64,000 nt of DNA from Mollicutes bacterium (GCA_012799635.1 JAAZKW010000010.1:3308-67307); one strand, 5' to 3'. Numbered from the stretch's first letter, positions 192 through 21,234 are shown. Numbers and translations: made by a program. The notes: generated from the sequence alone by a model not told the origin.

Positions 192-995
192 TTAATCAGT
201 TAATAATTTCTCATTAATTTTCTTTGGGAAATTATAATGTTTTAATCTTATACATTTAATCGTCTTATCCTTTATTTCTGTTTTAATTTTTTTAACATTA
301 TCAAAATAATAACTATTTCCATCAAAGGAAATATGTAAATCTTTTTTATCAAATTCAGGTTCTACTATAATTTCTTTATGATTAGGAATTATAACTGAAT
401 TACGAAGTGCTCGATATACTTTAGTATTAATCGGAGCAATTGGAGTTATCTGTAAACTATTAAAAGTATTATAAACAATACTACCCCCAAAACTTAAATT
501 ATATGCAGTTGAACCTGTAGATGTTGCTATAAGAATACCATCACCAATAAATCTTTCAAGTAAATCTCCATTTATTTTTATATTAAGTTTAGTGGCTTTT
601 AAATTCTTATCTCTAATCACTATTTCATTTAATGTTAAATAATTATATTTTTTATTATTAGTTTCAATCTCTGTTTCTTGAATACCTATTTCCTCTATTT
701 TAAATTCACCATTTTTTAATTCTTTAATAAAACAATCTACTTCATCAACTTTAATTTCTTGTAAAAAACCAAGTGTTCCAGTATTAATTCCAACATAATA
801 AATATTACTATTAAAATTCATCTTTTTTACCATTCTAAGAAAAGTGCCATCTCCTCCAATTGCAATAACAAGATCACAGTTCTTATCAATAATATATCCA
901 TTAGAAATAAGCTTTTCTTTTATAATATTGCTTATTTCAATTGATTTGTCATCATTATTTGGATATAACCATATCTTCTTTATCATAAAAATCAT
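192..995 (-). CDS. nadK: NAD kinase
   Basis: 267 aa with the GGDGTFL motif (AIGGDGTFLRMV) and a typical ATP-NAD kinase length. The second ATG at 986 has better spacing from AAGGAG, so the true start may be 986. Confidence 0.9.
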   Translation of the reverse strand: MIFMIKKIWLYPNNDDKSIEISNIIKEKLISNGYIIDKNCDLVIAIGGDGTFLRMVKKMNFNSNIYYVGINTGTLGFLQEIKVDEVDCFIKELKNGEFKIEEIGIQETEIETNNKKYNYLTLNEIVIRDKNLKATKLNIKINGDLLERFIGDGILIATSTGSTAYNLSFGGSIVYNTFNSLQITPIAPINTKVYRALRNSVIIPNHKEIIVEPEFDKKDLHISFDGNSYYFDNVKKIKTEIKDKTIKCIRLKHYNFPKKINEKLLTD

Positions 996-1272
996 ACTCC
1001 TTTTTCTATTACTATGTTAGGAAGACTTACAATATTCATTTTATCATCATATAGAGTAATTTTGTTTAATAAATTCTCTTCACATCCATCTTGTAAAAAT
1101 GCTACACATTTATTTAATACAATTAAAGTCTTTTTTAATCCTTTTTTAGTAATTAATTTCTTTTCTATTAATTCACATAATTCTTTATTTTTATTTAAAT
1201 TAACTTCCCTCTAATATATTGTCCAATTAGTCCATGTGTTTTAATTCATTTATCGCTTTCATAAAAACCTCT

Positions 1273-1740
1273 TTAACCAATAATCTTTATTAACATATCT
1301 TTAATTATCTTTACTATTCTCTTTTTATTATCTTCTCGACTAGAATTAATAGTTTTTATTTCTTTGGTATAATATTGATTATTATTTTTATCATAAATGC
1401 TTACAAACACTTTATTATCTTCGCCAAACAAATTATTTATATCAATGTCATTTATTTTTCCTGTAATACCAACTCCATAATCAGAATTTGTATAATTACT
1501 AATTACTAAGCTCATTTCTTTAGCTACTTCTAAACTATATACCGAATATTTATCTATTATATCCTTATTAACACCCATCTTAATTTTAAATTCATTTGAA
1601 TAAGTTACTGCACTAAATTTTAATACATCACTAGAACCGGAAATATTTGTAATAGAATTTACTAAATATCCTCCCGTACATGATTCCATTGTCGCAATTG
1701 TTTTATTAGCTTTTTGTAATAACTCTACTATTATTTTCAT
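1273..1740 (-). CDS. pncC: Nicotinamide-nucleotide amidohydrolase (CinA C-terminal domain type)
   Basis: 155 aa with the MESCTGG motif characteristic of the CinA/PncC domain. It lies within the NAD gene cluster. Confidence 0.8.
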   Translation of the reverse strand: MKIIVELLQKANKTIATMESCTGGYLVNSITNISGSSDVLKFSAVTYSNEFKIKMGVNKDIIDKYSVYSLEVAKEMSLVISNYTNSDYGVGITGKINDIDINNLFGEDNKVFVSIYDKNNNQYYTKEIKTINSSREDNKKRIVKIIKDMLIKIIG

Positions 1741-1757
1741 ATAATCCTCACTAATAT

Positions 1758-2324
1758 TTATCTAACATATAACTTCTTTTCTCTAATATACTTAATTACT
1801 TCTTCATCCAATAAACCTGATAAATCAGTGGTATTACCTTTTTCAATCATTTCTCTTATAATTGTCGAAGAAATCTCTTTATATGAAAAACCGTCTACAA
1901 ATATAAAATTTTTATGTTTTGAAAAATCTACTATTTCACTAAATGATGGCATATTATCTCTGGGTAAAACGATAATTTTATATTCTAATAATTCTTCAAA
2001 GTTTTTCCACAAATGAAATTTAGGTAAATTATCTGAGCCTATTATTAAATATAATTCTTTTTCTCTACTTTTTAATGCTCTTAAAATTTGATACGTATAT
2101 TCTAAATGATTAAGATTTTTGTTAATTATTATTCTATTTGTCTTATAAAACTCTAACATCTTTATTCTGTCTTTTATATCAATCAAATCTTTTTTATCCC
2201 AATAATTACCCGTAGGTACTATCTCAATTATATCAACATATTTATTATTTAACAAATAATCAATTATGGCTTTATGTCCCTTATGTACAGGATTAAAACT
2301 ACCTACATATACTCCGACTTTCAT
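1758..2324 (-). CDS. nadD: Nicotinate-nucleotide adenylyltransferase
   Basis: 188 aa with the GSFNPVHKGH motif (GxFxPxHxGH nucleotidyltransferase motif) and C-terminal ISSTxIR. Confidence 0.9.
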   Translation of the reverse strand: MKVGVYVGSFNPVHKGHKAIIDYLLNNKYVDIIEIVPTGNYWDKKDLIDIKDRIKMLEFYKTNRIIINKNLNHLEYTYQILRALKSREKELYLIIGSDNLPKFHLWKNFEELLEYKIIVLPRDNMPSFSEIVDFSKHKNFIFVDGFSYKEISSTIIREMIEKGNTTDLSGLLDEEVIKYIREKKLYVR

Positions 2325-2341
2325 ATTTTATCCTTCTTTCA

Positions 2342-3103
2342 TTAATTGTTTTTTATATAGGTTGGTATTTTAAATTTATGGCTACTGTTATCACGTAATG
2401 TTCTAATTTTTTTTGCAATATCATCATTTACACTATTAGGATTTTCCATGTAGCTAGCAATATCTTTATATTTAACTCCTAATTTTTCTTCATCAGACAT
2501 TCCAGATAATCCGTCATCAGGAGTTTTATACAATACTTTTTCAGGAACCTTTAAATATTTGCCAATAGCAATAACTTCATCTACTGTAAGATCAGCTATA
2601 AGAGCAATATCATGTGCTGAATCTGCTCCTTTTGTAAAATATCCTACATATATTTCACACTTATTTGAAGTTCCTACTACTAAATAAGTTTTACCTTTTA
2701 ATGCACTATATAATGCCGCTAAATAATATAACGTTGCCATTCTTAATCTCGGTTTTAAATTAATATCAGAATTTTTAGTTTCAATATCACTAAAATTACC
2801 TAAATTATTAAGCTCATTTTTAAAGGAATCATAAACACCAGTAAGATCAAAGTTAATTAATTCAAAACCATAATAATCACTTACTAATTTTGCATCTATT
2901 TTATCATCTTCATGTGAATGGCATGGCATCGTTACTCCAATTACATTTTCTTTGCCTAAAGCCTTAGTTAATAGCCCAGCTACAACACCACTATCTTTAC
3001 CACCACTAATTCCTAAAATAGCCCCCTTTAGATTATTTGTTTCATAATAATTTCTAACAAATTTAACTATTCTTTCCGTTTCTTTTTTTGCATCAAATTT
3101 CAT
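2342..3103 (-). CDS. nadE: Ammonia-dependent NAD+ synthetase
   Basis: 253 aa with the SGGKDS PP-loop (LGISGGKDSGV) and the size expected for NadE. Confidence 0.9.
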   Translation of the reverse strand: MKFDAKKETERIVKFVRNYYETNNLKGAILGISGGKDSGVVAGLLTKALGKENVIGVTMPCHSHEDDKIDAKLVSDYYGFELINFDLTGVYDSFKNELNNLGNFSDIETKNSDINLKPRLRMATLYYLAALYSALKGKTYLVVGTSNKCEIYVGYFTKGADSAHDIALIADLTVDEVIAIGKYLKVPEKVLYKTPDDGLSGMSDEEKLGVKYKDIASYMENPNSVNDDIAKKIRTLRDNSSHKFKIPTYIKNN

Positions 3104-3702
3104 TTTTTATTCCTAACTTTCATATATTTTTTAGCTCTTTCTAGAGTAATAATCGCATTACACCCTTCAATATAACCCATATTTATAAGCTCCAAAGCTT
3201 CATCATAATAACAATTAAAATATTTTATGTACTCACCTTCATCCAAATGTTGATTTCCTGCTTTATAGCAATCAAGAGCAAGGAAACATTCATTATAAGC
3301 ACTCGAACATCCCATATCTTGATAAAAGCCTCCCAATGATATTAATCTTTTAGGCATATAGCCAATTTCTTCTTCTAATTCTCTAACTGCAGCACCATAA
3401 GATGGTTCTTTTTTCTCAATATATCCTGCAGGTAATCCAATACCTACTGTTCTTTTGGAAAACACTCTTGGTTCAACAATTAATATTACTTTATCATCTT
3501 CAATTACAGGAAGGATAATAACAGCACTACCCTCCTTTTCTCCTTTTATGATCTTTTCTCTTTTAATCATTTGACCATTATTTAAATAGCACTGATATAC
3601 CTCACTTTTTAAAAAGGAGCATGGCTCAAATAACCTTTCTTTATTAACTGTTTTTAACTCTTCTATTAAATGGTGTAATTCTTCTAATTTTTCTTTTCTC
3701 AT
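3100..3702 (-). CDS. Nudix hydrolase, probably ADP-ribose pyrophosphatase
   Basis: 200 aa with the Nudix box GYIEKKEPSYGAAVRELEEEIGY. It overlaps nadE by 4 nt, suggesting translational coupling. Confidence 0.75.
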   Translation of the reverse strand: MRKEKLEELHHLIEELKTVNKERLFEPCSFLKSEVYQCYLNNGQMIKREKIIKGEKEGSAVIILPVIEDDKVILIVEPRVFSKRTVGIGLPAGYIEKKEPSYGAAVRELEEEIGYMPKRLISLGGFYQDMGCSSAYNECFLALDCYKAGNQHLDEGEYIKYFNCYYDEALELINMGYIEGCNAIITLERAKKYMKVRNKK

Positions 3703-3705
3703 CTA

Positions 3706-5169
3706 TTATGATCTGCTCCTTACGGGTGTAGTTTCTTCTAATGCTCTTTTTTGATGTTCTTCAATTAAACGATTCTTTAAATCAAGTAATTTTTGAGATA
3801 AATCAACATAATATTCATGCGGATTAGTAAGTCTTTTAATTTCTGGATAAAATGTCATAAATTCATTGTAACAATATTCTTTTCTTTCTTCAACACTAGG
3901 TAATTGATAAACTAACTTTCCATTTATATATATTGGAACTTGCATTTCTCTTAAGTTATAATTTCTAAGGGTAGTTTGTTTCCAATTTTCTACAGGATGA
4001 ATTAAAGTATATTGTTCTAGAGGAATCTTTTCATCAGCAAGAGCTATTAAATCTCCTAAAGCATAACCATTATTTTTATCATAAAACCTGTAAACCTTTT
4101 TATACCCTGGATTTATAGTTTTAATAGTATCTTCACTAACCTTCATTTTAGGTATAATTACCCCATCTTTTTCTGTTGCTACTAACTTATAAACACCACC
4201 AACTCTTTCTTTTGCTGCTGCTATATTATCTCCAACTCCTAAACTATCAAAGCTTGCACCTTGCATTACTAAGTCTCTTATTGTATATTCATTTAATCCA
4301 TTTGATAAACATATCGTAGCATCTTTAAAACCACTATCATCCAACATTTTACGTGCTTCATTTGATAAGTACGCTAAATCACCACTATCAATTCTAATCC
4401 CCTTAAACTTATGTCCATTTGGAATTAAATATTCTTTAGCTACCTTTATAGCATTTGGAATTCCACTTCTTAAAGTATCATAAGTATCAACTAAAAATAC
4501 GCAATTATCAGGATTACTTTTAGCATAATTTAAAAATGCTTCATACTCAGTATCTGCTTCTGTTATTAAAGAATGAGCCATTGTTCCCATAACAGGTATT
4601 TTATATTTCATTCCTGAATAAGTATTTGAAGTTCCTACACATCCTCCTATATAAGCATATTTACTTGCTTCTATAGCTGAATCCTCACCCCTAGCCCTTC
4701 TAGCTCCAAATTCCATAACTGCTTTGCCATTTGCTTCATTAGTTATTCTCCTAGCAGCTGTAGTAACTAAACTTGCATGATTGAAATTAGCTAATAAAGC
4801 CGTCTCAATTATCTGAGCCTCAATTATTTTTGCTTTAACAGTCATTACTGGCTCATTAGGAAATATTGGTGTTCCATCAGGAATTGCATATATATCCCCA
4901 GTAAATTTAAGATTTTTTAAATAGCTTAAAAATTCTTCACTAAATTTTCCTAGACTTCTCAAATAATTAATTTCTTTTTCACTAAATTTAAAATTTTTAA
5001 TGTATTCAATTATATTATCTAATCCCCCACTTATTGTATATCCGCCATTAAAAGGATTTTTTCTAAAAAATAAATCAAAATAAACTTTTTCATCTTCTTT
5101 ACCTTGATCAAAATAAGTTTGAGCCATGGTAAGTTCATAAAAATCAGTCATTAAAGTTTTATTTGCCAT
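3706..5169 (-). CDS. pncB: Nicotinate phosphoribosyltransferase
   Basis: 487 aa with the N-terminus LMTDFYELTMAQTYF typical of NAPRTase, and a matching length. Confidence 0.9.
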   Translation of the reverse strand: MANKTLMTDFYELTMAQTYFDQGKEDEKVYFDLFFRKNPFNGGYTISGGLDNIIEYIKNFKFSEKEINYLRSLGKFSEEFLSYLKNLKFTGDIYAIPDGTPIFPNEPVMTVKAKIIEAQIIETALLANFNHASLVTTAARRITNEANGKAVMEFGARRARGEDSAIEASKYAYIGGCVGTSNTYSGMKYKIPVMGTMAHSLITEADTEYEAFLNYAKSNPDNCVFLVDTYDTLRSGIPNAIKVAKEYLIPNGHKFKGIRIDSGDLAYLSNEARKMLDDSGFKDATICLSNGLNEYTIRDLVMQGASFDSLGVGDNIAAAKERVGGVYKLVATEKDGVIIPKMKVSEDTIKTINPGYKKVYRFYDKNNGYALGDLIALADEKIPLEQYTLIHPVENWKQTTLRNYNLREMQVPIYINGKLVYQLPSVEERKEYCYNEFMTFYPEIKRLTNPHEYYVDLSQKLLDLKNRLIEEHQKRALEETTPVRSRS

Positions 5170-5171
5170 AT

Positions 5172-5789
5172 CTATCTTCTCCTTTCATATTTTTTCACTA
5201 ACTGTATTCCAGCTTGATCCATTAATTTATATGCCATTTGAGTATATTCATCCCTACTATGACCTGGAGCATCATATGTTTCAACAGCATTAGTTGGAAC
5301 AACAATTCTTACATCTCTATTAAATTCATCGAAGTAATTTTGAAGTGGAATCGCAAGGTTGATATCACAAATATCAGTACAACATCCTGCAATTACAACT
5401 TCTCTTAAATATTTCATTTGCTCAATATCAGAAACAAAACCTGGAGCAAACATTGCACTAGTAGAATTTTTCGGATAAACAAGAGCATCCTTTTCAAAAG
5501 GTTTGAACTCATCAATTAGCTCTGCTTCTTTAGTACCAATAACACAATGTTCTGGATACCTTTTAAATTCACTGCAACCTAGTTCATGATTATCCTTGAT
5601 AAATGCAATACCTGCATCACTTCTTTGAAACATGTTAATTAATCTAAGTTGTTCTGGAATTATATGCGCTATATATGGATCAGCCATATTTCCCTCTCTA
5701 ACAAAGCCATTAACCATATCAACTATAATAAGCAAGTCTTTAATTTTCTCTAGCCTTTCTCTTTTCATTTCTAACTTTTCTTTTTTCAT
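5172..5789 (-). CDS. pncA: Nicotinamidase / isochorismatase-family hydrolase
   Basis: 205 aa with an isochorismatase-like fold signature (LIIVDMVNGF ... IAGCCTDICD). It is the first gene of the NAD operon and lies directly upstream of pncB. Confidence 0.75.
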   Translation of the reverse strand: MKKEKLEMKRERLEKIKDLLIIVDMVNGFVREGNMADPYIAHIIPEQLRLINMFQRSDAGIAFIKDNHELGCSEFKRYPEHCVIGTKEAELIDEFKPFEKDALVYPKNSTSAMFAPGFVSDIEQMKYLREVVIAGCCTDICDINLAIPLQNYFDEFNRDVRIVVPTNAVETYDAPGHSRDEYTQMAYKLMDQAGIQLVKKYERRR

Positions 5790-8902: not shown

Positions 8903-11900
8903 TTATTCTGTTCTAAGCGCTTCAACAGGATCTTTCTTTGATGCTACTTTCGCTGGTATTAAACCACCAATTAAAGTTAATATAATTGCCAATATAACTA
9001 ATACAAAAGCATTAAGAATTGGTAATGAAGCATTAAGGGGTATATTTCCAATATAATGATGTAATACTATATTTATTATTGGTATTAATAAATAAGATAT
9101 TCCGATTCCAAATAAACCCGATAACATTCCTATAATAAATGTTTCAGCATTAAATATCGAAGATATATTTCCTTTAGAAGCTCCTATTGCTCTTAAAATA
9201 CCAATTTCTTTGGTTCTTTCATAAACTGATATATAAGTTATTACCCCAATCATAATACTTGATACAACAAGTGAAATAGATACAAAAGCAATTAATACAT
9301 AACTAACAGCATTTACTATTGTTTTAACAGTCGACATCAAAATGCCTGTTGTATCTGTATATTTAATTTCTTTTGGTTCTTCAACACTTTTATTATATTT
9401 ATCTATAAAAGATAAAAAGTTTTCTTTCCCTTCAAAGCTAGTAAAATAAACTGATACATACGTAGGTTCTTCTTTATCTTGATATCCAAGTGATATAAGG
9501 TTTGTTTTTTGAGTGGTTTTACTTGGATTCATTATTGCATTTACTACCCTTGCAAGTTCATCTTCGGTAAAATTTAATGTAAAAGCGGATGCAATTTTAT
9601 CTTGATCAATATTAAATGATGTTGCAAAATTATTTGTAATATTTGCCGTTAATTCTCCAACTTTGGTTAAAACATCTTTTTTTACTTTCGCTTCAGTCAT
9701 TGCTTTAGCCATAACGTCGCCTGTCCCTTTAATTGCAGCACTTTCTATATATGAAGATACAATTGTATCTTTAAGTTCAGGTAATATTATACCCTTAGGA
9801 TTAACACTATCGATAACAAAACCTGGATCTAAAGATGCCATATAAGTATTATATCCTGTAATATATGCTTGTAATAACCCTTTTAATAATCCATTATAAG
9901 TTGTTTTAAATGTGTTTTTAGGAATAACATAATTTTTTTCCATATTCAATAATATATTACTAGCATCAGCTGTATCAAGATAATTATTAACTAACATCTC
10001 AATTTCACTTACACTAAACTCTTTATCAATACTATTTAATAATCCCTTTATTAAAACACTTAAATTATTATTAAATAAATTACTTGCAGGTGTTATATCA
10101 GTTGTAATAAAACTTGCTATCTCATCCATATAATCTTGAGTTTGATTTTCTAGGGTTTTTTTATCAACATTAATATTAAATGCGCTTTTTAATTTCTTAT
10201 TATCAACTTTAACTAAATCGGTAAACTTAAAATCAAAATCGCTTTTTTTACTATCAAATCTATTTCCAGAAAAAACATCTATTTCACTATTTTGCAATTG
10301 TTTTTTTACAATGTTAGTTTCTTTGGAATAATTAATAATATAATCTATTAATTTTGAAGTATATGCTACCCCTGGATTTAAAGCCATTGTTGCAACCCCT
10401 TCTTTGGGACTTACAATTCCAACTATTTTTAATTTAGTTGCATTATCATATAATTTTCTCATATAAGTTTTATCTTCCTGCATATCCTCATAAACATCAT
10501 ATTTAGGATTATATTTATATCGATCCGAAGGCATTATAAGTCTTAAATCACTTTTCATTAACTTTTCATATGTAATCGTCATTGGTTTATTATTTATATC
10601 AACAGTATCCCCACCCATAATACTTGTAATCATTTGAGTAAGTTCTTCAGTATCACGAAGTCCTAAAGAATATACTAATAAATCAGATATACTATCGGGC
10701 TCAGACAATACAATTATCATTTCATCATAATTTTTAGGCCATGAACCAGCTAACATATCATAATCATCTTCAATATCACTGACATCATCAATCATCTGTG
10801 AATATATCGAGGACATTCCAGAATATGAACTCATTAAACTATTTGAACCTATCATTGATGTAAATAAATTACTTGGATTTACTTGAGCTAATTTTTTAGT
10901 TGCATCTATTGTATATATGTTAGGATCTACACTATAAGAATATTTAATGTTTGAAATATCAGTTTCTATTTTATGATAATTTTTTTCAATATATTTTTTA
11001 AAGCTTTTAAGATCATTTGTACTAACGTTGGAAAGCATTGATGTAATATATTGTTGCTCTACCACTTGATTTTTTTCTTTTTTTCCACTACTTTTATTTC
11101 GCATCGATAATAATACACTTGTAATATCAGATGATTCTTGCATAATTGTTAAAGGATAAGACGTTAATGTATCTTCTTGAATCGAATCAACATAATTTTG
11201 AAAACCAGTTGATACAGCCATAATTAAAGCAATACCAATAATACCAATAGATCCTGCAACCGAAACTAAAGTTGTTCTTCCTTTTTTTGTCATTAAATTA
11301 TTAAATGATAATGATAACGCAGTTAAAAAAGACATTTTAGTTTTACTAATCACCTTTTGTTCAACTTCTTTAGTATTAAGTTTTCCATCATAAGGATTAG
11401 AATCACTTATTATTTTTCCATCTTTTAGATTTATAATTCTACTTGAATATTCTTCGGCAAGTTCTGAATTATGAGTAACCATTATAACAAGCTTTTCTTT
11501 AGATATCTCTTTAAGTATTTTCATAATTTGAATACTTGTATCAGAATCAAGTGCACCAGTTGGTTCATCTGCTAAAATTATTTCGGGATTATTTACAAGC
11601 GCTCTTGCAATTGCAACTCTTTGCATTTGCCCACCTGATAGTTGATTAGGTCTTTTATTTGCATGCTTTTCTAACCCAACATCTTTTAATGCCTTTAAGG
11701 CTTTTTTCTTTCTTTCTTCTTTAGAACATCCTGATAAAGTTAATGCTAATTCGACATTTCTTAAAACTGTTTGATGGCCAATTAAATTATAGCTTTGAAA
11801 AACAAATCCTACTCTATGATTACGATAGCTGTCCCAATCACGATCAGAAAAATTCTTAGTACTAACTTCATTAATTATTAAATCTCCTGAATCATAATGA

Positions 11901-12064
11901 TCAAGACCTCCAATAATATTTAGAAAAGTTGTTTTACCACTACCACTGGGACCTAAAATAGAGGCAAATTCACTTTCTCTAAAATTGAGACTTACTTTAT
12001 TTAAAGCTTTTTGTTCAAAATCTCCTGTTTTATATATCTTCGTTATATTTTTTATTTCTAACAT
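8903..12064 (-). CDS. MacB-type fused ABC transporter (N-terminal ATPase plus FtsX-family permease) with a very large extracytoplasmic domain
   Basis: 1053 aa with Walker A GPSGSGKTT, signature LSGGQMQRVAIARAL and Walker B ILADEPTGALD. One TM segment lies near aa 265-285 and a cluster of TM segments after about aa 915. Confidence 0.85.
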   Translation of the reverse strand: MLEIKNITKIYKTGDFEQKALNKVSLNFRESEFASILGPSGSGKTTFLNIIGGLDHYDSGDLIINEVSTKNFSDRDWDSYRNHRVGFVFQSYNLIGHQTVLRNVELALTLSGCSKEERKKKALKALKDVGLEKHANKRPNQLSGGQMQRVAIARALVNNPEIILADEPTGALDSDTSIQIMKILKEISKEKLVIMVTHNSELAEEYSSRIINLKDGKIISDSNPYDGKLNTKEVEQKVISKTKMSFLTALSLSFNNLMTKKGRTTLVSVAGSIGIIGIALIMAVSTGFQNYVDSIQEDTLTSYPLTIMQESSDITSVLLSMRNKSSGKKEKNQVVEQQYITSMLSNVSTNDLKSFKKYIEKNYHKIETDISNIKYSYSVDPNIYTIDATKKLAQVNPSNLFTSMIGSNSLMSSYSGMSSIYSQMIDDVSDIEDDYDMLAGSWPKNYDEMIIVLSEPDSISDLLVYSLGLRDTEELTQMITSIMGGDTVDINNKPMTITYEKLMKSDLRLIMPSDRYKYNPKYDVYEDMQEDKTYMRKLYDNATKLKIVGIVSPKEGVATMALNPGVAYTSKLIDYIINYSKETNIVKKQLQNSEIDVFSGNRFDSKKSDFDFKFTDLVKVDNKKLKSAFNINVDKKTLENQTQDYMDEIASFITTDITPASNLFNNNLSVLIKGLLNSIDKEFSVSEIEMLVNNYLDTADASNILLNMEKNYVIPKNTFKTTYNGLLKGLLQAYITGYNTYMASLDPGFVIDSVNPKGIILPELKDTIVSSYIESAAIKGTGDVMAKAMTEAKVKKDVLTKVGELTANITNNFATSFNIDQDKIASAFTLNFTEDELARVVNAIMNPSKTTQKTNLISLGYQDKEEPTYVSVYFTSFEGKENFLSFIDKYNKSVEEPKEIKYTDTTGILMSTVKTIVNAVSYVLIAFVSISLVVSSIMIGVITYISVYERTKEIGILRAIGASKGNISSIFNAETFIIGMLSGLFGIGISYLLIPIINIVLHHYIGNIPLNASLPILNAFVLVILAIILTLIGGLIPAKVASKKDPVEALRTE

Positions 12065-13956: not shown

Positions 13957-13970
13957 ATTATTTATTTTTT

Positions 13971-14038
13971 TATACCAAATAAAAATGTCTTATATTTAAG
14001 ACATTTAATGTCATTTATAGAGTCCTTGAAAGGATTTG
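13971..14038. repeat. Left direct repeat of the tRNA-Arg island: terminator hairpin plus a displaced 17-nt tRNA-Arg 3' fragment
   Basis: 68 nt. It shares perfect blocks tataccaaataaaaatgtctta (22 nt) and gtccttgaaaggatttg (17 nt), plus the aatgtctta/taagacatt hairpin, with 21112-21178. Confidence 0.85.
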
Positions 14039-14105: not shown

Positions 14106-16061
14106 TTATAAACCCCCTTTATAAAAATAAATTTTCATGGCATTATCTGAATATATTGGTTTAGACACATCAATATCCAAAACTTTACCAATATAATATA
14201 TTATGAATTGTGACGCAATAAGCAAATCAAATTCTGCTAAAATGCCATCATATTTACTTTCAATTAATATATAATCATTATCTAAATACTTTAACAGTTC
14301 AATTTCATATTTAGTAGTAGATTTTTGCTTAAAATATATTGAAAAATTATTTCCTAAATTTTCATAATTAATAAATCTTCCATGAGAAAAATTCTTTTTT
14401 TCATGAATTATACAATTAAATATGCCCGATTCAATAATTTTACTTTCTAAATCGTAACAAGCAGCATCAGTATAATCGCCTCTAAAAATATTCACCAAAT
14501 TATTCTTTTTTATTTTTTCTATTATTTTTTTATCTACTAATCCTTCTATTTGTCTGTCCCAATACATAATTGATTTTTTTATAAAATCGTTAATATCAAT
14601 ATCATAATTTACTTTCTCTAAATAATATTTTAAAAATATTGCTGCTGGGGCTACAGCTCCTTCGAACGAAAGAAATCCTCTCTCTTTTCCTTTATTAGAC
14701 GCAGTTCTATAACTTAATATATTTTCCTTCAAAAAATCTGTTTTTAATACTATATTTTGCAGTTCGCCTTTTGTAATTATATAAACATCCTTCTTATCAA
14801 ACTCTCTAGCGCTGCAAACAATATCATTAGTTGTTCCTGAATATGAAAACAAAATAATTTTATTAATATTACTATTATTTCTATATAATATATCTCTCGG
14901 ATATAATGAATAAGTATTACATCCATATAATGCATTTATTACTTTTGATGAAAAAATTGAACCAGCATATGATCCTCCTGTGCCTATAAATAAACAGTTT
15001 GTATCTTTACAAAAACCGATTTCTTCTAATTTTTTACATGCTGGGGAATTAACAGCATTAATAACTCTCTTTTCTAGATTGTTTATATTAATATTACATC
15101 TTTTTATTTTTTTTCTTTCAATAAGATCAAATTTATCACACGTACAAGTTTCATTTACTTTTTTTAATTTAAACAATGAATTTATGTGTCCTCTTGCGCC
15201 TATTTTTGAAACAACTTTAGCAGTGAGTTTGTTAGATTTCAAATACCACTTTTTTAATTTATGTGAATCATATTTAAAATCGTTTTTTATACTATCTTTA
15301 ATAACACTTGAAATAAATGCATCCCCCGCACCAGTAGAATCTACTACATCACCTTTTAATTCAAGCTCGAAATTATGAACTTTATTATTTGCTATAAATG
15401 TTGCACCATCCTCACCCCTTGTGATAGTCATTAAATTAGGGTTGATGATCTTATATAAGTCAATGTCGTTTTTTAAGTTTAACCTTTTTAAAAGGTAATT
15501 ACTTACTCTTTCATTAAAATTAATTATCTCAAATTTTTGCTTTAACTTTTTTATTATTTCATCATTTGACATATTTTCTAACTCAAAATACTGACCTAAA
15601 TCAATTATTTTTTTATTAATAGTATTATCAATTATTATTTGGTTCTTTATATTTAAATTGTCAAAAACTAAAATATCATCTGTTTTAATGTTAGCAAGAA
15701 CATAATTGGTTTCCAATAAGCTTTCATCATACCATTTTTTACTATTACAAAATGGGCATCTTTTTTTAGAAGTTAAGAACAATTTGCCGTTTTTTTCATA
15801 ATAAGATACATGAAAGCACCTCGTTCTAGTACCTTCAACAATTTTTATATTATCTATATCAACTTTAAGTTTTTCTAAACTTTTAATTGCAATTTTTCCC
15901 TGGTCATCATTACCACAACAAGCAAACACCGTAGTCTTCAACCCCATTTTTGCTAAATTAGCAATTATATTTTGTGAGGTCATACCACCATTTACGCCTA
16001 ATAATTTGTCATCTTTATAATAAAAATCTGTTACTAAATCTCCTATGCTTACTACTCTCAT
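14106..16061 (-). CDS. Fusion protein: PfkB-family sugar kinase (N-terminal) plus a double SIS phosphosugar isomerase/deglycase-like domain (C-terminal)
   Basis: 651 aa. The PfkB signature DSTGAGDAF lies near aa 240. The first SIS motif is FIGTGGSYAGS ... LFSYSGTTND. The second half, LESKIIESGIFNCIIHEKKNFSHGRF, resembles the GlmS/AgaS/FrlB C-terminal SIS domain. CxxC (CPFCNS) and CTC...C cysteine clusters are present. Confidence 0.75.
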   Translation of the reverse strand: MRVVSIGDLVTDFYYKDDKLLGVNGGMTSQNIIANLAKMGLKTTVFACCGNDDQGKIAIKSLEKLKVDIDNIKIVEGTRTRCFHVSYYEKNGKLFLTSKKRCPFCNSKKWYDESLLETNYVLANIKTDDILVFDNLNIKNQIIIDNTINKKIIDLGQYFELENMSNDEIIKKLKQKFEIINFNERVSNYLLKRLNLKNDIDLYKIINPNLMTITRGEDGATFIANNKVHNFELELKGDVVDSTGAGDAFISSVIKDSIKNDFKYDSHKLKKWYLKSNKLTAKVVSKIGARGHINSLFKLKKVNETCTCDKFDLIERKKIKRCNININNLEKRVINAVNSPACKKLEEIGFCKDTNCLFIGTGGSYAGSIFSSKVINALYGCNTYSLYPRDILYRNNSNINKIILFSYSGTTNDIVCSAREFDKKDVYIITKGELQNIVLKTDFLKENILSYRTASNKGKERGFLSFEGAVAPAAIFLKYYLEKVNYDIDINDFIKKSIMYWDRQIEGLVDKKIIEKIKKNNLVNIFRGDYTDAACYDLESKIIESGIFNCIIHEKKNFSHGRFINYENLGNNFSIYFKQKSTTKYEIELLKYLDNDYILIESKYDGILAEFDLLIASQFIIYYIGKVLDIDVSKPIYSDNAMKIYFYKGGL

Positions 16062-16249
16062 TTTAATATCCTCCTTTTGTCATTAAAAATATTACAAAAA
16101 TCGCTCAACGATTCATTGCCTATATAACACTGAATTATATTATGCATATTAAAAGTTAAAAATATAAGTTCGTCTTGAAATCTCTTAGATTTATCTGTTA
16201 TTTCTTTATTAAAATAACTTTCTTTTATCCACATATCAACCTCATTTAC

Positions 16250-17122
16250 TCAAACCGTTATGAAAGATAAAAACACATCCTTATCTTTTATTTCAATAAT
16301 ACAATTATAGCCTGACATAAAAGACTTTATTCTATTATAATTAAGAATATCATTATTATAACAATAAGACATTATAATTCTACCTATATCCAATAATGGC
16401 GAATTAAATCTTACTAACTCAAAGTCCAATATTTTAGGCATATCTTTTTCAAAAAGAATATTATCAGCAGCGAAATCGCCATGAGTCATAGAAATAGGTA
16501 TTTCATCGATTATATTTATTTCACTTAATAATGTTAATATTTTTTGGTGTTTTATTAATAACTCATAATATAGCTTGGGAGTGTTTTGATTTTTCTTATT
16601 GACTTTAGCTTCATATCTTTCAAACAATTTATCAATTGTTGGAATTTTTAAATATTCCCCTTTGTAAGGAGTTTTATCCACGTTTCTAAATAAATAATGC
16701 ATTTTAGCGCATTCTCGCCCAAGATAATATAATTGAACATCATTAATACTTTCTCTTAAAACATGATGACCACTCAAAAAACCTATTAATGCTAAACGAT
16801 CATTACCATAAGGCAATAATATTCTATTTTTCTTATCGGGTTCTATATACTCACAATTTAGATTATTGCAATACATAACATTTTCTATTCTTAAATTATT
16901 TAAAAGTTGATTATCCAAATAATCAGTAGAAAATTCATTGTTACTCATTTTACTCACTTTTCTTGAACTAAATATTTTTATAACATATTTGGTATTTGCT
17001 AAATCTCTACATATGAATTTTTTATTCATCCATCCACCAGACAATATATTAATATCGACAAGCTCAATTCCATAATTTTCATAGATTATAACCTTTAAAT
17101 TACTTTCCACCATTATCACCAT
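16250..17122 (-). CDS. Aminoglycoside/choline/fructosamine-kinase-like phosphotransferase (APH fold), ending at an in-frame TGA
   Basis: 290 aa with the Brenner motif HGDFAADNILF and ILDFE. The same frame stays open for 63 more codons after the TGA at 16250-16252 and ends in an ATGA overlap with the next gene at 16058-16061. Confidence 0.7.
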   Translation of the reverse strand: MVIMVESNLKVIIYENYGIELVDINILSGGWMNKKFICRDLANTKYVIKIFSSRKVSKMSNNEFSTDYLDNQLLNNLRIENVMYCNNLNCEYIEPDKKNRILLPYGNDRLALIGFLSGHHVLRESINDVQLYYLGRECAKMHYLFRNVDKTPYKGEYLKIPTIDKLFERYEAKVNKKNQNTPKLYYELLIKHQKILTLLSEINIIDEIPISMTHGDFAADNILFEKDMPKILDFELVRFNSPLLDIGRIIMSYCYNNDILNYNRIKSFMSGYNCIIEIKDKDVFLSFITV

Positions 17123-18071
17123 CTATATATTCCTTTGCTATTTTAATTATTTCTTCGATTGTTTTTCTATTTGAAAAACCTGCTGCATGTGTATGCCCAC
17201 CACCAGTTAATAATTCTGCTAATTTACTTGCATCTAATTTGTTTTTACTACGTATCTCACCCTTCTTTTTATTTCCAAAATCCATTATTACTATCATAAC
17301 ATCAATATCTTCTCTACTTAAAATAGCAGGAATACATTTTTTTGAAATATCAGAATAAGAGACTAAATTAAATAGTGGTTTTTTCATATCTAGAACTACA
17401 TAATGAAAGTTAGATACTATTAAATTATTATTTATATAAGAAATAATATCCATTTCGTTTTTTGTCTTTTCTAAATAAAATTTCTTTATCAAAAATTCAC
17501 CATCAACATCATTCTTTAATAATTTACTAACTATAGAAAATGTTTTACTTGAAGCAGCATTAGAAAATAAATTAGTATCACTTATTATTCCTGTAAAAAT
17601 AAGTTCAGATATTTTTTTATCACAATTAAGATCCAACTTTTTTATAATGTCATAAATTATTTCACAAGTAGAACTTGCACTATAATCACTTAAAATAAAT
17701 TCAGCATTTGTTATGTTACCATTATGATGATCAATATTAATCCTATAATTTGCATTATTATAATATTCTTCAATAGAATCAGGCAATCTTGAAGTTCTAT
17801 TTAAATCTATTGCTATAAAGGTAAAATCTTTTGATGTAATTTTTTGACACAATAAATCATTTAAATCAAAATAACTAATTTTATTTATACTTTCAGGTTC
17901 AATAAATGCTTTTACATTTTTATTGATTTTTTTTAAACCATACGCTAATGCTAAAGATGAACACATTGAATCATAGTCGGCATTTTTATGTCCAGCAATT
18001 ATAATATCATTTGACAAGTTTTTAAGTATATCTGCTAGCTTTTTTGTATTTTTTTTCTTAACATTTTTCAT
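17100..18071 (-). CDS. DHH/DHHA1 family phosphoesterase (NrnA-like paralogue)
   Basis: 323 aa with AGHKNADYDSMCSS (DHH motif I/II region), NIDHHNGN (DHH) and GGGHTHAAGF (DHHA1 GGGH). Confidence 0.8.
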   Translation of the reverse strand: MKNVKKKNTKKLADILKNLSNDIIIAGHKNADYDSMCSSLALAYGLKKINKNVKAFIEPESINKISYFDLNDLLCQKITSKDFTFIAIDLNRTSRLPDSIEEYYNNANYRINIDHHNGNITNAEFILSDYSASSTCEIIYDIIKKLDLNCDKKISELIFTGIISDTNLFSNAASSKTFSIVSKLLKNDVDGEFLIKKFYLEKTKNEMDIISYINNNLIVSNFHYVVLDMKKPLFNLVSYSDISKKCIPAILSREDIDVMIVIMDFGNKKKGEIRSKNKLDASKLAELLTGGGHTHAAGFSNRKTIEEIIKIAKEYIDGDNGGK

Positions 18072-20389
18072 TTTAATAATCTCCTTTTATATTCTCCTAC
18101 TTCACTATTGTCATTATAATCATGATTTTTTATTAAACACTCAATAATCTTTTTCCTATTTATATCAAATACTCCTATACTGTCTTTATAATCAATCTTA
18201 CCGTCTTTATTTTTCCATTCATTATCTTTCCAACTATAAGGACTGCTATAGCATAATCCATAAATATAATCAAAGAATAAATGAAAATCAACAGCTGCGA
18301 TATTATCTAAAAACATTTGGTCAATTCGATTAATTCCCGGATATCTAACGATACATATATTATTAACATCTATATCACTATCATATAAGGAATTAATTGC
18401 CAATTGTAATGTTTTCCCAGTTAAAACGTTATCATCAAAAAGGTCTACATTAGAATGCCTAAATACATTAGAATTAATTAGTCCGCCATATTCATTAATA
18501 TTAAATTTTCTTAAATCTATAAGTTGTTTATTTGAATATCCAGAAACTTCTTTATTGAATTTAAGAAGTAAAAGGCTTTCAATTGTATTTTTATCAACTA
18601 TCTTTGCAATTATTGGCAATTCGATTCCACCATAGCTTAAACCACATGCGTTAATATAATCATTAGTATTACCTCTTTTTTCTTTATATAAAGATACTGC
18701 CGTATAATTTTCACCAAAATTATCTATTTCACGATATGCTCTATAGTCTTTTGAATAATCCTTTTTTTCATTGCTTAATTGTTCTATCATAAAATTATCA
18801 TTAATTAATTCTTTTGACTTGCGTACTAAATTACACACTAGATCTTTATTTATTAAAACCTTTTCTTCAAAACATATTTTACTCATTATATCTTCTATTT
18901 CAAATAAGATATTATATATATCATTAAAATCTTTATTTTCTTTTGAAGAAATATCTAATAAAATATTATCGTTTACATTATTTGAAACAAGTTTATGATT
19001 CATTATAACTAATAATACATTCCTACAATTATCTAAAATTCCGAGCAACAATTTTTTGTTAATTAAAGAATTTATTTCCTTAGTATTTAATATAGCCTGC
19101 TCAGCATCATTTAAAAACCGAATGTAATTACGATGCCATTCTAACACATTATTTTTTGTTGTTATATCTCTGCCATTTAAACTTATTCTATTTGCTAGAA
19201 AGTAATAATATGTAGACGACCCCCTAAGAAGATAATTATTATCATCTCTTAACAAATAAATTAAATTACCATCTGCTTGTGAATTCCAAAATTCTTTTAG
19301 AGAATTATTTGATATAAGTTCCCATTCATACATAGGTATCAATATACTTCCGCTTGATTTATCAAACAAACCATCTATTCCATCATCGGTTTCGAAATTC
19401 TTATTTATTATTTCATTATATTTTTTTAATAATTTTTTCCTTCCTAATACAATCTTTTTTTCGGCAATTGCAAAATTCAATTTATAACTTAATATATCAG
19501 CTTTTTCTAAACAAACAGTCGGCAAAATTTTAGAATTATTTATTAGCTCGATTGTTGCAACAACACCTTTTAAAATGTTCCCATTTTCATCAAATATTGG
19601 GAAACAAGAATCTACTGAGCCGCTAGTTTTATCAACACTATAACCTTGTTGACAGTTTAACATTAAATAGTCGTTTCCATGAATGTCTCCGCAATCTCCA
19701 ACTCTCATCATCGAATTTTTAGGAACACCTATTATTTTTTCAACCCTTTCAATGGCCTTATCCTTAGTAGTTGTACCTATTTGAATGATAGTATTATCTT
19801 TATATATTCCCCTAGTTAAATAAATTCCTGCAAGCTTATTAGCAGAAATTATTTTTTCAAGAGCATCATTTACTTCTTTGATAATATTGGCATTTTTAAT
19901 TTTAAAAACTAGTCTAATATTAATAATAGTGTTAGTTTTTAAATCTTTTGAATATGTTATATCAAAATAATTGCTATTAATATTTTTAATTGTAGCATTT
20001 ATTTTCATTAATTGATTTAATTCATCTTTTGTAGTTATATAAGTATCTTGAGATAGAAATTCTTCGTATGAAGCACCATTACTATAAAAAAGTCGTGCCC
20101 CATCATTTGTTAATACATGAATTCTTTTAATATCATTATCTGTTATCCCAATTGAATTAGCAATAAAATCATATATATCATTTTTAAAATCGTTTAGTCC
20201 TGTTTCGCCACGCCCTGTTATAAAAACCACTGGCACTTTTCTCTTTAAAAGCTCAATAATTAATTTAATGGCCCTGTTATCTATTTTTTTTGATTTTTCT
20301 TCTGTTAAGGTCCCATTAATATCAAAACAAACGGCATTATACTTTTGTTCAAGTGATTTTTTAAAATTATAATATAGTTCATTTTTCAT
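18068..20389 (-). CDS. Multidomain protein: N-terminal Cof-type HAD-IIB domain, unassigned central region, C-terminal type I phosphoribosyltransferase-like domain
   Basis: 773 aa. HAD motif I is FDINGTLT (Asn at the D+2 position). Motif II is VVFITGRGETG and motif IV is VGDCGDIHGNDYLML. A PRPP-loop-like sequence, VDLFDDNVLTGKTLQLA, lies near aa 650. Confidence 0.65.
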   Translation of the reverse strand: MKNELYYNFKKSLEQKYNAVCFDINGTLTEEKSKKIDNRAIKLIIELLKRKVPVVFITGRGETGLNDFKNDIYDFIANSIGITDNDIKRIHVLTNDGARLFYSNGASYEEFLSQDTYITTKDELNQLMKINATIKNINSNYFDITYSKDLKTNTIINIRLVFKIKNANIIKEVNDALEKIISANKLAGIYLTRGIYKDNTIIQIGTTTKDKAIERVEKIIGVPKNSMMRVGDCGDIHGNDYLMLNCQQGYSVDKTSGSVDSCFPIFDENGNILKGVVATIELINNSKILPTVCLEKADILSYKLNFAIAEKKIVLGRKKLLKKYNEIINKNFETDDGIDGLFDKSSGSILIPMYEWELISNNSLKEFWNSQADGNLIYLLRDDNNYLLRGSSTYYYFLANRISLNGRDITTKNNVLEWHRNYIRFLNDAEQAILNTKEINSLINKKLLLGILDNCRNVLLVIMNHKLVSNNVNDNILLDISSKENKDFNDIYNILFEIEDIMSKICFEEKVLINKDLVCNLVRKSKELINDNFMIEQLSNEKKDYSKDYRAYREIDNFGENYTAVSLYKEKRGNTNDYINACGLSYGGIELPIIAKIVDKNTIESLLLLKFNKEVSGYSNKQLIDLRKFNINEYGGLINSNVFRHSNVDLFDDNVLTGKTLQLAINSLYDSDIDVNNICIVRYPGINRIDQMFLDNIAAVDFHLFFDYIYGLCYSSPYSWKDNEWKNKDGKIDYKDSIGVFDINRKKIIECLIKNHDYNDNSEVGEYKRRLLK

Positions 20390-20396
20390 ATTTTAG

Positions 20397-20913
20397 TCAC
20401 CTCCTTAACAAAAATTCTAAACTTTTAACCTTTCCATCTGTATCATTTGAAAGGTTTTTATCAAAAAGTAATCCATTTCCACCATTTTCATTCCATAATC
20501 TAACATTTTTCTTCAAATCGTCAATTAAAATTTGTCCATTTGGTATAACAACGTTATGTTTTTTTATACCTGGTGGAACAAAAATTACGGGGCAATAAAT
20601 TTTTCTATGTTCTCTTAAATATTCTATTTTAACTTTCATCTCATTTAAAGTATGTATTTTAGTTAAGATAGCAATTTTCTTTTTTAAGGATTCAAGCTCT
20701 CTAATTATTTCAACTGAATTATTTATTGAACTAGCTTCTCTTATTATATAATCCCATTCTTCTTGGTGAATATTAGTATAATCAAAATAATCATCAAATT
20801 CTTTTTTCATCTTTATGATTATGAAAACCAGCATTATATTTTCTTTCTAACATTCTTTCCTCAGAATCAAGTATAACCCCATCAAAATCAATATAAACAA
20901 AATCATCCATCAT
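20397..20913 (-). CDS. HAD-superfamily 5'(3')-deoxyribonucleotidase-like protein (NT5C family), interrupted by a frame change at an A6 tract
   Basis: ATGATG at 20908-20913 follows GGAGG and encodes MMDDFVYIDFDGVILDSE (DxDxV motif I), then stops at 20794-20796. The +1 frame (track ORF 20397-20834) carries the rest (...ILIDDLKKNVRLWNENGGNGLLF). The frames meet at GAAAAAAG (20802-20807 on the plus strand as T6). Confidence 0.6.
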
Positions 20914-20935: not shown

Positions 20936-20944
20936 ATTATAACA
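20936..20944 (-). promoter_or_regulatory. Extended -10 element (TGTTATAAT) for the island operon
   Basis: The reverse complement of attataaca reads TGtTATAAT. It lies about 23 nt upstream of the GGAGG-ATG of the first island gene. No good -35 element was seen. Confidence 0.45.
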
Positions 20945-21111
20945 CACTCTTTTGAGATATTTGGTTTTTTATTTTATTTATATATCAACCCCATTCTTTT
21001 TTTATCAATACATATTGCTTTGCATAAGCATCTTTAATATTAATATGAATTGGCTACTTATTTTAATGATTTATTTCTTATTATAAGAACCCCATAAAGC
21101 GATACCACATT

Positions 21112-21178
21112 TATACCAAATAAAAATGTCTTAAATTATAAGACATTTATACTCACATGGCGTCCTTGAAAGGATTTG
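21112..21178. repeat. Right direct repeat of the tRNA-Arg island: terminator hairpin plus the genuine tRNA-Arg 3' end
   Basis: 67 nt, matching 13971-14038 (see the left repeat). The last 21 nt are part of the intact tRNA. Confidence 0.85.
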
Positions 21179-21234
21179 AACCTTCGACCTTCCCCTTAGG
21201 AGGGGGATGCTCTATCCAGCTGAGCTACAAGGAC
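21158..21234 (-). tRNA. tRNA-Arg (anticodon CCT)
   Basis: The reverse complement is GTCCTTGTAGCTCAGCTGGATAGAGCATCCCCCTCCTAAGGGGAAGGTCGAAGGTTCAAATCCTTTCAAGGACGCCA. It folds as a cloverleaf with anticodon loop CUCCUAA and an encoded CCA. Confidence 0.9.

Follow-up and report, generated by a model that had tools for sequence, protein, structure and literature searches.

What do five adjacent genes for phosphate-handling enzymes do together on the minus strand of a 64,000-nt stretch of Mollicutes DNA (hereafter the window), in a combination that an earlier note could assign to no described pathway? ORF analysis of the window confirmed five collinear minus-strand reading frames at 14106–20913 (Table 1), and the junctions, counted from the NT5C-like gene, are a 7-nt gap, an ATGA overlap, a 23-nt overlap and a second ATGA overlap. 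The note had read this arrangement as one co-translated unit; a unit of five working enzymes cannot be upheld in the window because the copy is damaged in four places. What the window contains is a damaged copy, inserted at a tRNA gene, of a two-protein module that is widespread but uncharacterised.

Table 1. Features of the locus, with positions counted from the first nucleotide of the window.
Feature	Position	Strand	Remarks
Distal att-like direct repeat	13969..14038	.	Repeats the final ~20 nt of tRNA-Arg and its terminator hairpin
PfkB kinase with double SIS-type C-terminal half	14106..16061	-	651 aa, intact; one of two deeply conserved core genes
APH/homoserine-kinase-fold kinase	16058..17122	-	Optional cassette; TGA at 16250-16252
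DHH/DHHA1 phosphoesterase	17100..18071	-	323 aa, intact; optional cassette
773-aa core protein, HAD-IIB – middle domain – type-I PRTase	18068..20389	-	D25N in motif I
NT5C-like HAD 5'(3')-nucleotidase gene	20397..20913	-	Broken by +1 insertion in A-run 20802-20807
Extended -10 element TGTTATAAT	20936..20944	-	In conserved WYL–NT5C intergenic region
WYL regulator gene, 3'-end remnant	20970..21010	-	blastn and alignment to relatives' WYL 3' ends
Proximal att-like direct repeat	21110..21178	.	Overlaps tRNA-Arg 3' end and terminator
tRNA-Arg(CCT), insertion target	21158..21234	-	ARAGORN, Rfam

The 773-aa protein is divided into a HAD-IIB domain (residues ~15–285), a middle domain (~290–560) and a type-I PRTase (~570–773), and AlphaFold models have pLDDT values of 91.5 and 88.9. 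For HAD-IIB (TIGR01484), residues 20–245 score 45.1 against a cut-off of 41.8. The best match of the N-terminal fold is the IMP nucleotidase ISN1 (E 9e-9), which points to a nucleotide substrate for the HAD domain; Cof-type HADs match almost as well. ISN1, an IMP-specific 5'-nucleotidase of yeast and Plasmodium with 13–17% identity to the domain, was inactivated for crystallography by D172N (6rme), the same kind of change as D25N in the window, where HAD motif I reads DINGT rather than DIDGT, the sole case among 178 relatives. Score and fold place the domain in HAD-IIB, though the defining DxDGT motif with both Asp residues is lost in the window, and the domain, a HAD-IIB member by fold, is probably crippled as a phosphatase. 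The PRTase-like C-terminus proposed in the earlier note was borne out by agreement between the motif (LFDDNVLTGKT in the window protein, with D653 and N654 invariant and D652 and T657 nearly invariant across the family), PF00156 in relatives (12 of 42 family members, best E 4.3e-6, the window protein itself lying below threshold), a PyrR profile match to the region (E 1.6e-4) and a fold search that returned type-I PRTases only (HGPRT/APRT/OPRT; probability ~1.0, E only 1e-2). PRPP loop and core fold identify it as a type-I PRTase of the PF00156 kind. For the middle domain, fold comparison found no relative; this part of the family has no Pfam model.

The N-terminal half of the second core protein is a PfkB kinase (PF00294, 63.1 bits against 25.8) with an invariant DSTGAGDAF motif, and across 11 orthologues including Mycobacterium the motifs GAGD, GxGGS, YSG, ERGF and SHGRF are invariant. 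The phosphate-binding-type SIS motifs GTGGS and YSGT of the other half are likewise invariant. Here the window protein has weak SIS/PGI/PMI-type matches only (residues 348–437, E 1e-3), the Mycobacterium orthologue scores 28.3 against a cut-off of 25 for SIS (PF01380), and a weak PDB profile match leads to the double-SIS protein 2aml (E 0.046). No substrate-level NCBIfam equivalog reaches its cut-off for the PfkB protein; matches to ribose-1-phosphate kinase, fructokinase and PGI/PMI models are weak and lie below theirs. An identity as FrlD was rejected (NF007321, 38.2 against 247, a partial match over residues 1–79), as was one as HldE (domain I model, 40.6 against 345). The DHH protein, with 75.7 bits for PF01368 and 36 bits for PF02272, is indeed a paralogue (32% identity) of the NrnA-like gene at 37089–38000; NrnA itself was rejected (NF053633, 63.9 against an equivalog cut-off of 350). 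The APH-fold kinase scores 38.5 against 23.2 for PF01636 and has HGDFAADN and DFE motifs, its frame being cut by TGA after residue 290, and the frame-repaired NT5C protein scores 28.4 against 24.8 for PF06941, with a match to phrog_2643 (E 4.5e-16). Profile HMMs, the check suggested in the note, thus supported NT5C, HAD-IIB, DHH, DHHA1, APH and PfkB, with weak matches for SIS; the domain calls stand for HAD-IIB/unknown/PRTase, DHH, APH and PfkB, but the NT5C and APH frames are not intact.

We compared the locus with ~120 related loci. The family of the 773-aa protein comprises 372 clusters at 50% identity; neither its HAD and PRTase catalytic motifs nor those of PfkB and SIS vary across the family. 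All five genes, preceded by a WYL gene, occur together completely in four other loci and partially in three more, all from gut bacteria, and a chance assemblage, the alternative named in the note, is not supported. The five genes do recur together, but the conserved entity is a pair: the gene for the HAD-IIB–middle domain–PRTase protein adjoins that for PfkB–SIS even in Clostridia and Mycobacterium. This pair is adjacent in every locus with enough sequence, in a set of 30 genome loci (including Clostridia, and Mycobacterium at 24% identity), 2 distant metagenomic members and ~70 more Bacilli loci. In gut Bacilli, WYL and NT5C genes are added to it, WYL being found in ~90% of those related loci whose upstream sequence is long enough. 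Between the two core genes lies a slot that is either empty or filled with one of two optional cassettes, CAT plus esterase or DHH plus APH.

Nearly every sampled member of a lineage of small-genome gut Bacilli carries the module, including a ~1.4-Mb contig. The flanking genes, mostly housekeeping, are not conserved between loci, and those at 141 neighbouring positions are heterogeneous with no clear enrichment in defence genes. Cassette and core genes are frequently decayed among the related loci, and searches of phage records and viral contigs did not find the family. Fusions within the family join it to TIR, to Metallophos, and to PRAI plus ribulose-phosphate-epimerase-like domains. The TIR fusion gene is followed by a PfkB-like gene, and next to a Metallophos fusion lie a large reverse transcriptase and an HD protein of dGTPase-like type. 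On the Bacillus cereus plasmid pRML02, a homologue of the middle domain and PRTase adjoins an NT5C-family HAD and a CatA-like acetyltransferase that is 33% identical to the cassette CAT, in an operon with an ACP, a PLP decarboxylase, an adenylating enzyme, a BtrH-like protein, an aminotransferase, an ABC exporter and a second metG. The associations with TIR, with the dGTPase-like neighbour and with the plasmid are each a single example.

In the window, 7.1 kb of inserted DNA sits at the 3' end of tRNA-Arg(CCT), flanked by ~70-bp imperfect direct repeats that lie 7.14 kb apart; two repeat families are collinear with a spacing of 7140/7141 (pairwise alignment). As in a tRNA-integrated island, the direct repeats that enclose the insert include the 3' end of the tRNA. 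The five genes take up the whole interval between the repeats, which contains no integrase or recombinase. Contigs carrying the same mnmA included no empty insertion site, and two of them break at the junction. Upstream of NT5C, TGnTATAAT is invariant at the same intergenic position in eight aligned loci (the window and seven relatives), and this conserved position favours the extended -10 promoter that the earlier note had placed there, which remains a prediction from sequence. A generic promoter scan was uninformative in this AT-rich DNA.

How far is this copy still a working system? The WYL gene, which relatives carry upstream, has been deleted with ~40 nt left behind; the claim that the cluster contains no regulator is true of the window because of this deletion, but does not extend to the relatives. 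In NT5C, one extra A splits the gene over two frames into 39-aa and 137/145-aa pieces, so that the window lacks the intact ORF of ~170 aa expected from the intact orthologues (171 aa). In the APH-fold kinase, a TGG→TGA change leaves 290 aa, followed by a clean 63-codon tail that ends in the ATGA overlap with the next gene. This is a true nonsense codon, because TGA is a stop codon in this genome according to a genetic-code check and intact orthologues (350–358 aa) have Trp at this position. The same kinase stop is present in four loci of the comparison, and assemblies made independently from other samples repeat both this nonsense codon and the NT5C frameshift. With WYL, NT5C and the C-terminus of the kinase lost, and the general-acid residue of HAD gone as well, the window module is therefore probably inactive or rewired.

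The chances are about even that the locus in this genome is a non-functional remnant of a larger mobile island, with integrase and regulator deleted and the genes eroding, a reading compatible with any function of the module. Four independent lesions (the WYL deletion, the NT5C frameshift, D25N and the APH nonsense codon), two of them, the frameshift and the nonsense codon, fixed across several samples, and the lack of an integrase between the repeats agree with it. However, the reading frames of the PRTase part, DHH and PfkB–SIS are intact, all family-invariant residues other than D25N are kept, and the conserved promoter element is retained. Downstream of the NT5C and kinase lesions the sequence is clean and in frame, and the damage is therefore recent or tolerated. 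The chief value of the window copy is that of a natural mutant hit several times.

Neither PADLOC, NCBIfam equivalogs nor literature searches yielded a described pathway or defence system equal to the module, in line with the note's failure to recognise one: none of the five proteins matched PADLOC-DB 2.0 at E ≤ 0.1 (a library without post-2023 systems, e.g. Ophion), NCBIfam equivalogs scored far below their cut-offs, and the literature yielded no match. The two-protein module probably makes or reworks a nucleoside-like small molecule, and of the three functions suggested in the note, the synthesis or recycling of a phosphoribosylated small molecule fits best. The SIS half would rearrange a sugar phosphate or a ribosylamine/ketosamine phosphate, and the PfkB half would then phosphorylate the product. 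The PRTase may couple a base-like nucleophile to the activated pentose phosphate, after which the fused HAD-IIB domain, together with the NT5C nucleotidase in gut Bacilli, would strip phosphate to give a nucleoside-like product. In relatives, the WYL transcription factor would control the operon, and the slot cassettes could act as "mask/unmask" pairs (CatA-like O-acetyltransferase plus esterase, or APH-fold kinase plus DHH phosphoesterase), giving self-protection from, or activation of, a toxic product with a free hydroxyl. The product would most likely be used in conflict, as an antimicrobial, an antiviral or a signal.

Several known pathways offer analogies. Tubercidin and toyocamycin biosynthesis (TubE/TubG, ToyH/ToyI) reportedly contains a PRTase step followed by dephosphorylation, which would be the same step as proposed here. 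The ADP-heptose enzymes GmhA (SIS), HldE/HldA (PfkB) and GmhB (HAD) come from the same three superfamilies as those of the module and act on one sugar phosphate, isomerising it, phosphorylating C1 and removing the distal phosphate; the module differs in its double SIS, where theirs is single, in having a PRTase in place of their nucleotidyltransferase, and in lacking any LPS context. In angustmycin (psicofuranine) biosynthesis, AgmA–F rearrange a sugar phosphate, phosphorylate it, attach the base with an APRT-like type-I PRTase and dephosphorylate (PMC12648386). The likeness to the module would be one of reaction order only: angustmycin uses an AlsE-type epimerase and a PRPP-synthetase-type pyrophosphokinase where the module has SIS and a PfkB mono-kinase, the module packs its enzymes into two large fusion proteins that include an additional domain of unknown function, and the hosts are Streptomyces and gut Bacillota, respectively. 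As far as the description in PMC7824862 goes, Ter-linked genes for a PRTase and a HAD phosphoesterase were proposed to yield a derivative of a nucleoside or nucleotide in conflict or stress (Anantharaman, Iyer and Aravind 2012); by that description the module would share these two enzymes, lack TerB/C/D, ATP-grasp and vWA, and differ in its PfkB–SIS partner and WYL regulator.

With slightly less than an even chance, in our judgement, the module is a self-contained route to a nucleoside-like bioactive metabolite, in decay here. We regard as possible, though rather unlikely in all its parts, an unrecognised and widespread two-protein factory for a nucleoside analogue or nucleotide-derived conflict signal, switched by WYL in gut Bacilli and holding a slot for interchangeable mask/unmask immunity cassettes, with the middle domain supplying the missing activation step. 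On the side of a biosynthetic or conflict role we counted the pRML02 cluster, the TIR, Metallophos and PRAI fusions, WYL upstream, the unconserved flanks and the frequent decay. Against a route to a bioactive metabolite we counted that PfkB adds one phosphate and type-I PRTases need a 1-pyrophosphate donor, as well as the middle domain without a fold relative, the absence of phage or viral occurrences and the heterogeneous flanks without clear defence enrichment. Pfam and NCBIfam profile searches detected no pyrophosphokinase domain in the module, and the core contains no exporter or base-forming enzyme.

Near-universal presence across a lineage of small-genome gut Bacilli could equally mean housekeeping salvage. 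The two proteins would then feed central metabolism and the nucleotide pool by recycling aminosugar or Amadori phosphates, or else nucleosides and ribose phosphates, serving bacteria dependent on salvage; we consider this unlikely. PfkB plus double SIS does resemble the logic of FrlD/FrlB (fructoselysine kinase and deglycase) and AgaS/GlmS, which act on ketosamine phosphates, but the module fuses PfkB and SIS and always partners them with the HAD–PRTase protein. Weak matches to ribose-1-phosphate kinase, fructokinase and PGI/PMI models, the housekeeping flanks and the presence in nearly every sampled lineage member, down to the ~1.4-Mb contig, agree with salvage, whereas all equivalog scores are far under their cut-offs (e.g. 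38 against 247 for fructoselysine 6-kinase). The module has no uptake system, though intracellular substrates would need no transporter. WYL, the TIR fusion, both kinds of cassette, tRNA insertion, unconserved flanks and frequent pseudogenisation would be odd for core salvage. The ketosamine salvage suggested in the earlier note failed the FrlD/FrlB equivalog test, and its chemistry survives through the PRAI fusion, which ties the PRTase to Amadori chemistry.

The note's suggestion of a nucleotide-pool or conflict module is strengthened by the TIR fusion, WYL and the island context. PRTases are established defence effectors: ShosTA, PsyrTA, type III retron effectors and Ophion (rSAM plus PHP plus PRTase) use a type-I PRTase on nucleotide metabolism, as the module may, and Ophion, which pairs its PRTase with a phosphoesterase, is proposed to make nucleotide analogues. 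The module differs in architecture and partner, has no antitoxin, RT or rSAM, and leaves PADLOC models including ShosT unmatched. It is improbable that, on the model of ShosT or dNTP-depleting enzymes, a WYL-sensed signal turns the PRTase, the phosphatases and the kinase on the PRPP and (d)NMP pools, draining or corrupting them as an anti-phage defence that needs no distinct product: the dGTPase-like/RT neighbourhood, two phosphatases that could convert nucleotides to nucleosides, and the mobility and decay of the module agree with it, but the five proteins match no PADLOC model, the neighbourhoods are not clearly defence islands, retention across the lineage is atypical of defence systems, and a conserved kinase–isomerase partner or mask/unmask cassettes would be superfluous.

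The case would seem to be of interest at the level of the family rather than of the window copy, which hints that the pathway may become costly once its regulator is lost. Should the core pair make a nucleoside-like compound with bioactivity, it would offer a short and readily transplanted way into new nucleoside chemistry, taken from uncultured Bacillota of human and animal guts, whose natural products are almost unexplored. The pair would likewise be a new instance of small-molecule-based conflict or immunity beside viperins, ShosTA and Ophion, account for the gene order WYL–NT5C–PRTase–kinase that is met repeatedly, and assign a role to a family that numbers several hundred sequence clusters.

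A family of 372 clusters at 50% identity (counted at E < 1e-3), with full-length members down to ~24% identity, surrounds the 773-aa protein of the window, and its members have a constant partner. At 30 genome loci, including Clostridia and two Mycobacterium species, a PfkB–SIS protein (~650–725 aa) always follows the family member, and the pairing recurs in two further, distant members from metagenomes; a metagenome scan for distant family members yielded nothing beyond close Bacilli relatives. The block of gut Bacilli reads WYL–NT5C–773aa–PfkB/SIS, with a 196-aa HTH–WYL transcriptional regulator directly upstream of NT5C and flanking genes that vary by locus, and 44 of 80 further metagenomic loci have this four-gene form. 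Optional cassettes lie between the two core genes elsewhere among the 80: a full pair of CatA-like acetyltransferase (CAT) and α/β-hydrolase esterase at eight loci, an esterase remnant only or a CAT at a contig end at six further ones, and DHH plus APH at four complete and three partial ones. The last arrangement repeats the gene order of the window, which rules out a chance assemblage. The five-gene unit proposed in the earlier note is therefore real and recurrent, but it is not the core: this recurrence, together with the two-gene pairing, makes it one optional elaboration of the core. Related loci often carry broken genes in the assemblies as given, through either real decay or assembly error: CAT and esterase in pieces in L001–L003, a split kinase gene in L105 and a stopped one in L059, and a 773-aa gene in two to three pieces in L026, L031, L032 and L034.

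Positions of the features discussed, in the window and in related sequences
Sequence	Positions	Strand	Feature
Window	8903-12064		1053-aa ABC ATPase–FtsX-type permease fusion (MacB-like)
Window	13969-14038		Second copy of the ~70-bp repeat
Window	14106-20913	minus	Five-gene island
Window	14106-16061	minus	PfkB–SIS gene (invariant cysteines in its PfkB domain)
Window	16250-16252	minus	Internal TGA of the APH-fold kinase
Window	20802-20807	minus	A-run with one extra base in NT5C
Window	20936-20944		Extended -10 element, TGTTATAAT
Window	20945-20975		A/T-rich motif, GACAAAATATTTCAAA
Window	21110-21178		~70-bp stretch: last ~20 nt of tRNA-Arg(CCT) plus terminator hairpin
Window	~21200		tRNA-Arg/repeat junction
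Window	37089-38000		NrnA-like gene
L043 (metagenome contig)	978-5141		TIR + middle + PRTase fusion and following gene
L045 (contig)	1506-5759		Member with PRAI and epimerase-like domains
L046	1-11606		Metallophos–HAD–middle–PRTase fusion and neighbours
L044 (Bacillus cereus plasmid pRML02, NZ_CP011157.1)	~99.7-115 kb		Operon with middle+PRTase homologue

All five minus-strand frames of the window are present where the first reading had placed them. Their junctions are also as claimed (a 7-nt gap, ATGA, a 23-nt overlap and ATGA), and a Shine–Dalgarno-like run lies ahead of every start codon. The window has a GC content of ~25%, and TGA terminates 7 of its 43 long ORFs, which indicates the standard bacterial code and rules out reading the TGA inside the kinase as Trp (code 4). 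One of the seven is the 773-aa gene, whose C-terminus agrees with that of its relatives. Its product has an identical counterpart in a 'Mollicutes bacterium' metagenome-assembled genome and shares 72% identity with a protein of 'Clostridium sp. CAG:451'; judged by sequence, the host lineage is an uncultured gut Bacillota.

Profile searches bear out the domain calls for NT5C, DHH/DHHA1, the APH fold, PfkB and the N-terminal HAD-IIB of the 773-aa protein, and add a weak SIS/PGI-type signal C-terminal to PfkB. The DHH protein is indeed related to the NrnA-like gene (32% identity). The PRTase, originally called by eye, is upheld by four agreeing lines: a PRPP-loop motif, PF00156 (matched in 12 of 42 relatives of the 773-aa protein), a profile match of this part to PyrR, and fold matches of the predicted C-terminal domain, which are confined to nucleobase PRTases (HGPRT, APRT, OPRT and PurR). 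AlphaFold gave confident models, with a pLDDT of 91.5 for the whole 773-aa protein and 88.9 for residues 288–773. The best fold matches of the N-terminal domain are the IMP-specific nucleotidase ISN1 and Cof-type HAD-IIB proteins, and outside the PRTase part the middle domain (~270 residues; invariant R389, G390, Y394, D453, R553, E554 and D556) had no fold match in PDB or BFVD. All PfkB–SIS orthologues keep the motifs GAGD, GxGGS, YSG, ERGF and SHGRF. An invariant CPxC (residues 102–105) and a third Cys (306), retained out to Mycobacterium, suggest a metal site atypical for PfkB kinases.

A generic promoter and terminator scan was uninformative in DNA of 25% GC (77 sites observed vs 66 expected). 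The extended -10 element that had been claimed ahead of the operon was found, and it is invariant within an intergenic stretch conserved among relatives. The A/T-rich motif just upstream of it is conserved at the equivalent position in seven related loci (L001, L007, L008, L017, L049, L066 and L072) and is a candidate WYL operator.

The window copy carries several lesions. NT5C, an unbroken 171 aa in its orthologues, lies in two frames owing to one extra base, the first frame ending after 39 codons; the TGA inside the kinase stands at the position of a Trp codon in intact orthologues of 350–358 aa. Both lesions are identical in contigs assembled from several other samples, so that they are real and fixed and assembly error is ruled out; the sequence downstream of each is still clean. 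The 773-aa protein itself reads DINGT, vs D[IV]DGT in 176 of 178 relatives, and has thereby lost the general acid/base aspartate of HAD enzymes. Only ~40 nt of the 3' end of WYL are left, along with the intergenic promoter. Separately from any functional reading, we give about an even chance that this copy is inactive or rewired.

The five genes are exactly bracketed by two copies of the ~70-bp stretch, 7.14 kb apart, which carry the tRNA 3' end and so bear the signature of insertion at that point. The 7.14-kb insert contains no integrase; because the regulator is truncated on its tRNA-proximal side, it is reasonable to infer a deletion that took an integrase and most of WYL. No island-free 'empty site' was found among the contigs with the same mnmA. 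Two independent assemblies, L128 and L129, end ~50 nt past mnmA exactly at the tRNA-Arg/repeat junction; these breaks may stem from strain differences in carriage of the island or from the repeat itself. The MacB-like fusion just beyond the distal flank is unrelated.

Relatives with other domains or neighbours were also seen. L043 encodes a 1039-aa TIR + middle + PRTase fusion, and the next gene encodes a 340-aa protein that matches PfkB weakly. Metallophos is fused to the full protein; in one such case, L046, a dGTPase-like HD/HD_assoc gene lies 25 nt upstream of the fusion, and an AAA_14/DUF4143 ATPase and a reverse transcriptase of 1044 aa are encoded nearby, so that the surroundings resemble a defence island. 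In L045, a 1417-aa member ends in PRAI and ribulose-phosphate-3-epimerase-like domains, and the contig stops before the next gene; the substrates of PRAI, in Trp biosynthesis, are N-(5-phosphoribosyl)amines, compounds of the type that PRTases produce. On pRML02, the middle+PRTase homologue adjoins an NT5C-family HAD and a CatA-like acetyltransferase that shares 33% identity with the cassette enzyme; the operon also encodes an ACP, a PLP decarboxylase, an adenylating enzyme, a BtrH-like/DUF6005 protein, an aminotransferase and an ABC exporter. This operon looks like an uncharacterised antibiotic or secondary-metabolite cluster, and a second metG (methionyl-tRNA synthetase) just upstream on the opposite strand could be a target-copy immunity gene. 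In each cassette, one enzyme would modify a hydroxyl group and the other would reverse the change, and such pairs are a common self-protection logic of antibiotic producers.

We tentatively favour, at somewhat less than even probability, a self-contained route to a nucleoside-like and probably bioactive metabolite under WYL control. By analogy, the SIS half would rearrange a sugar phosphate, the PfkB half would phosphorylate it, the PRTase would move a base or amine onto an activated pentose phosphate, and HAD-IIB and NT5C would dephosphorylate. We favour this reading because these four chemistries match the order of known nucleoside pathways. Tubercidin/toyocamycin biosynthesis reportedly has a PRTase step followed by dephosphorylation, and angustmycin biosynthesis has the same order of chemistries as the module (PMC12648386). 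Its main gap is that the product of a PfkB kinase is no 1-pyrophosphate donor, as the PRTase requires; the middle domain may matter at this missing step.

A salvage or catabolic module is, in our estimate, unlikely. Still less likely is an anti-phage defence that, like ShosT, would work by damaging the nucleotide pool. Against simple defence, no PADLOC model matches the island proteins, and the 141 flanking proteins, scanned with Pfam and PADLOC, proved to be a mixed set with mainly housekeeping functions, which leaves the defence-island test neutral. No relative was found in 50,697 phage records or in IMG/VR, which also speaks against simple defence and led us to reject a phage-borne module.

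No account of this domain combination turned up in a literature search. By score the module is not FrlD/FrlB, HldE/GmhA/GmhB, NrnA or any PADLOC system, and its likeness to angustmycin-type pathways, to the Ter-linked PRTase+HAD idea and to Ophion is one of logic only. The window locus is a degraded example of the module, which is of interest at the level of the family.
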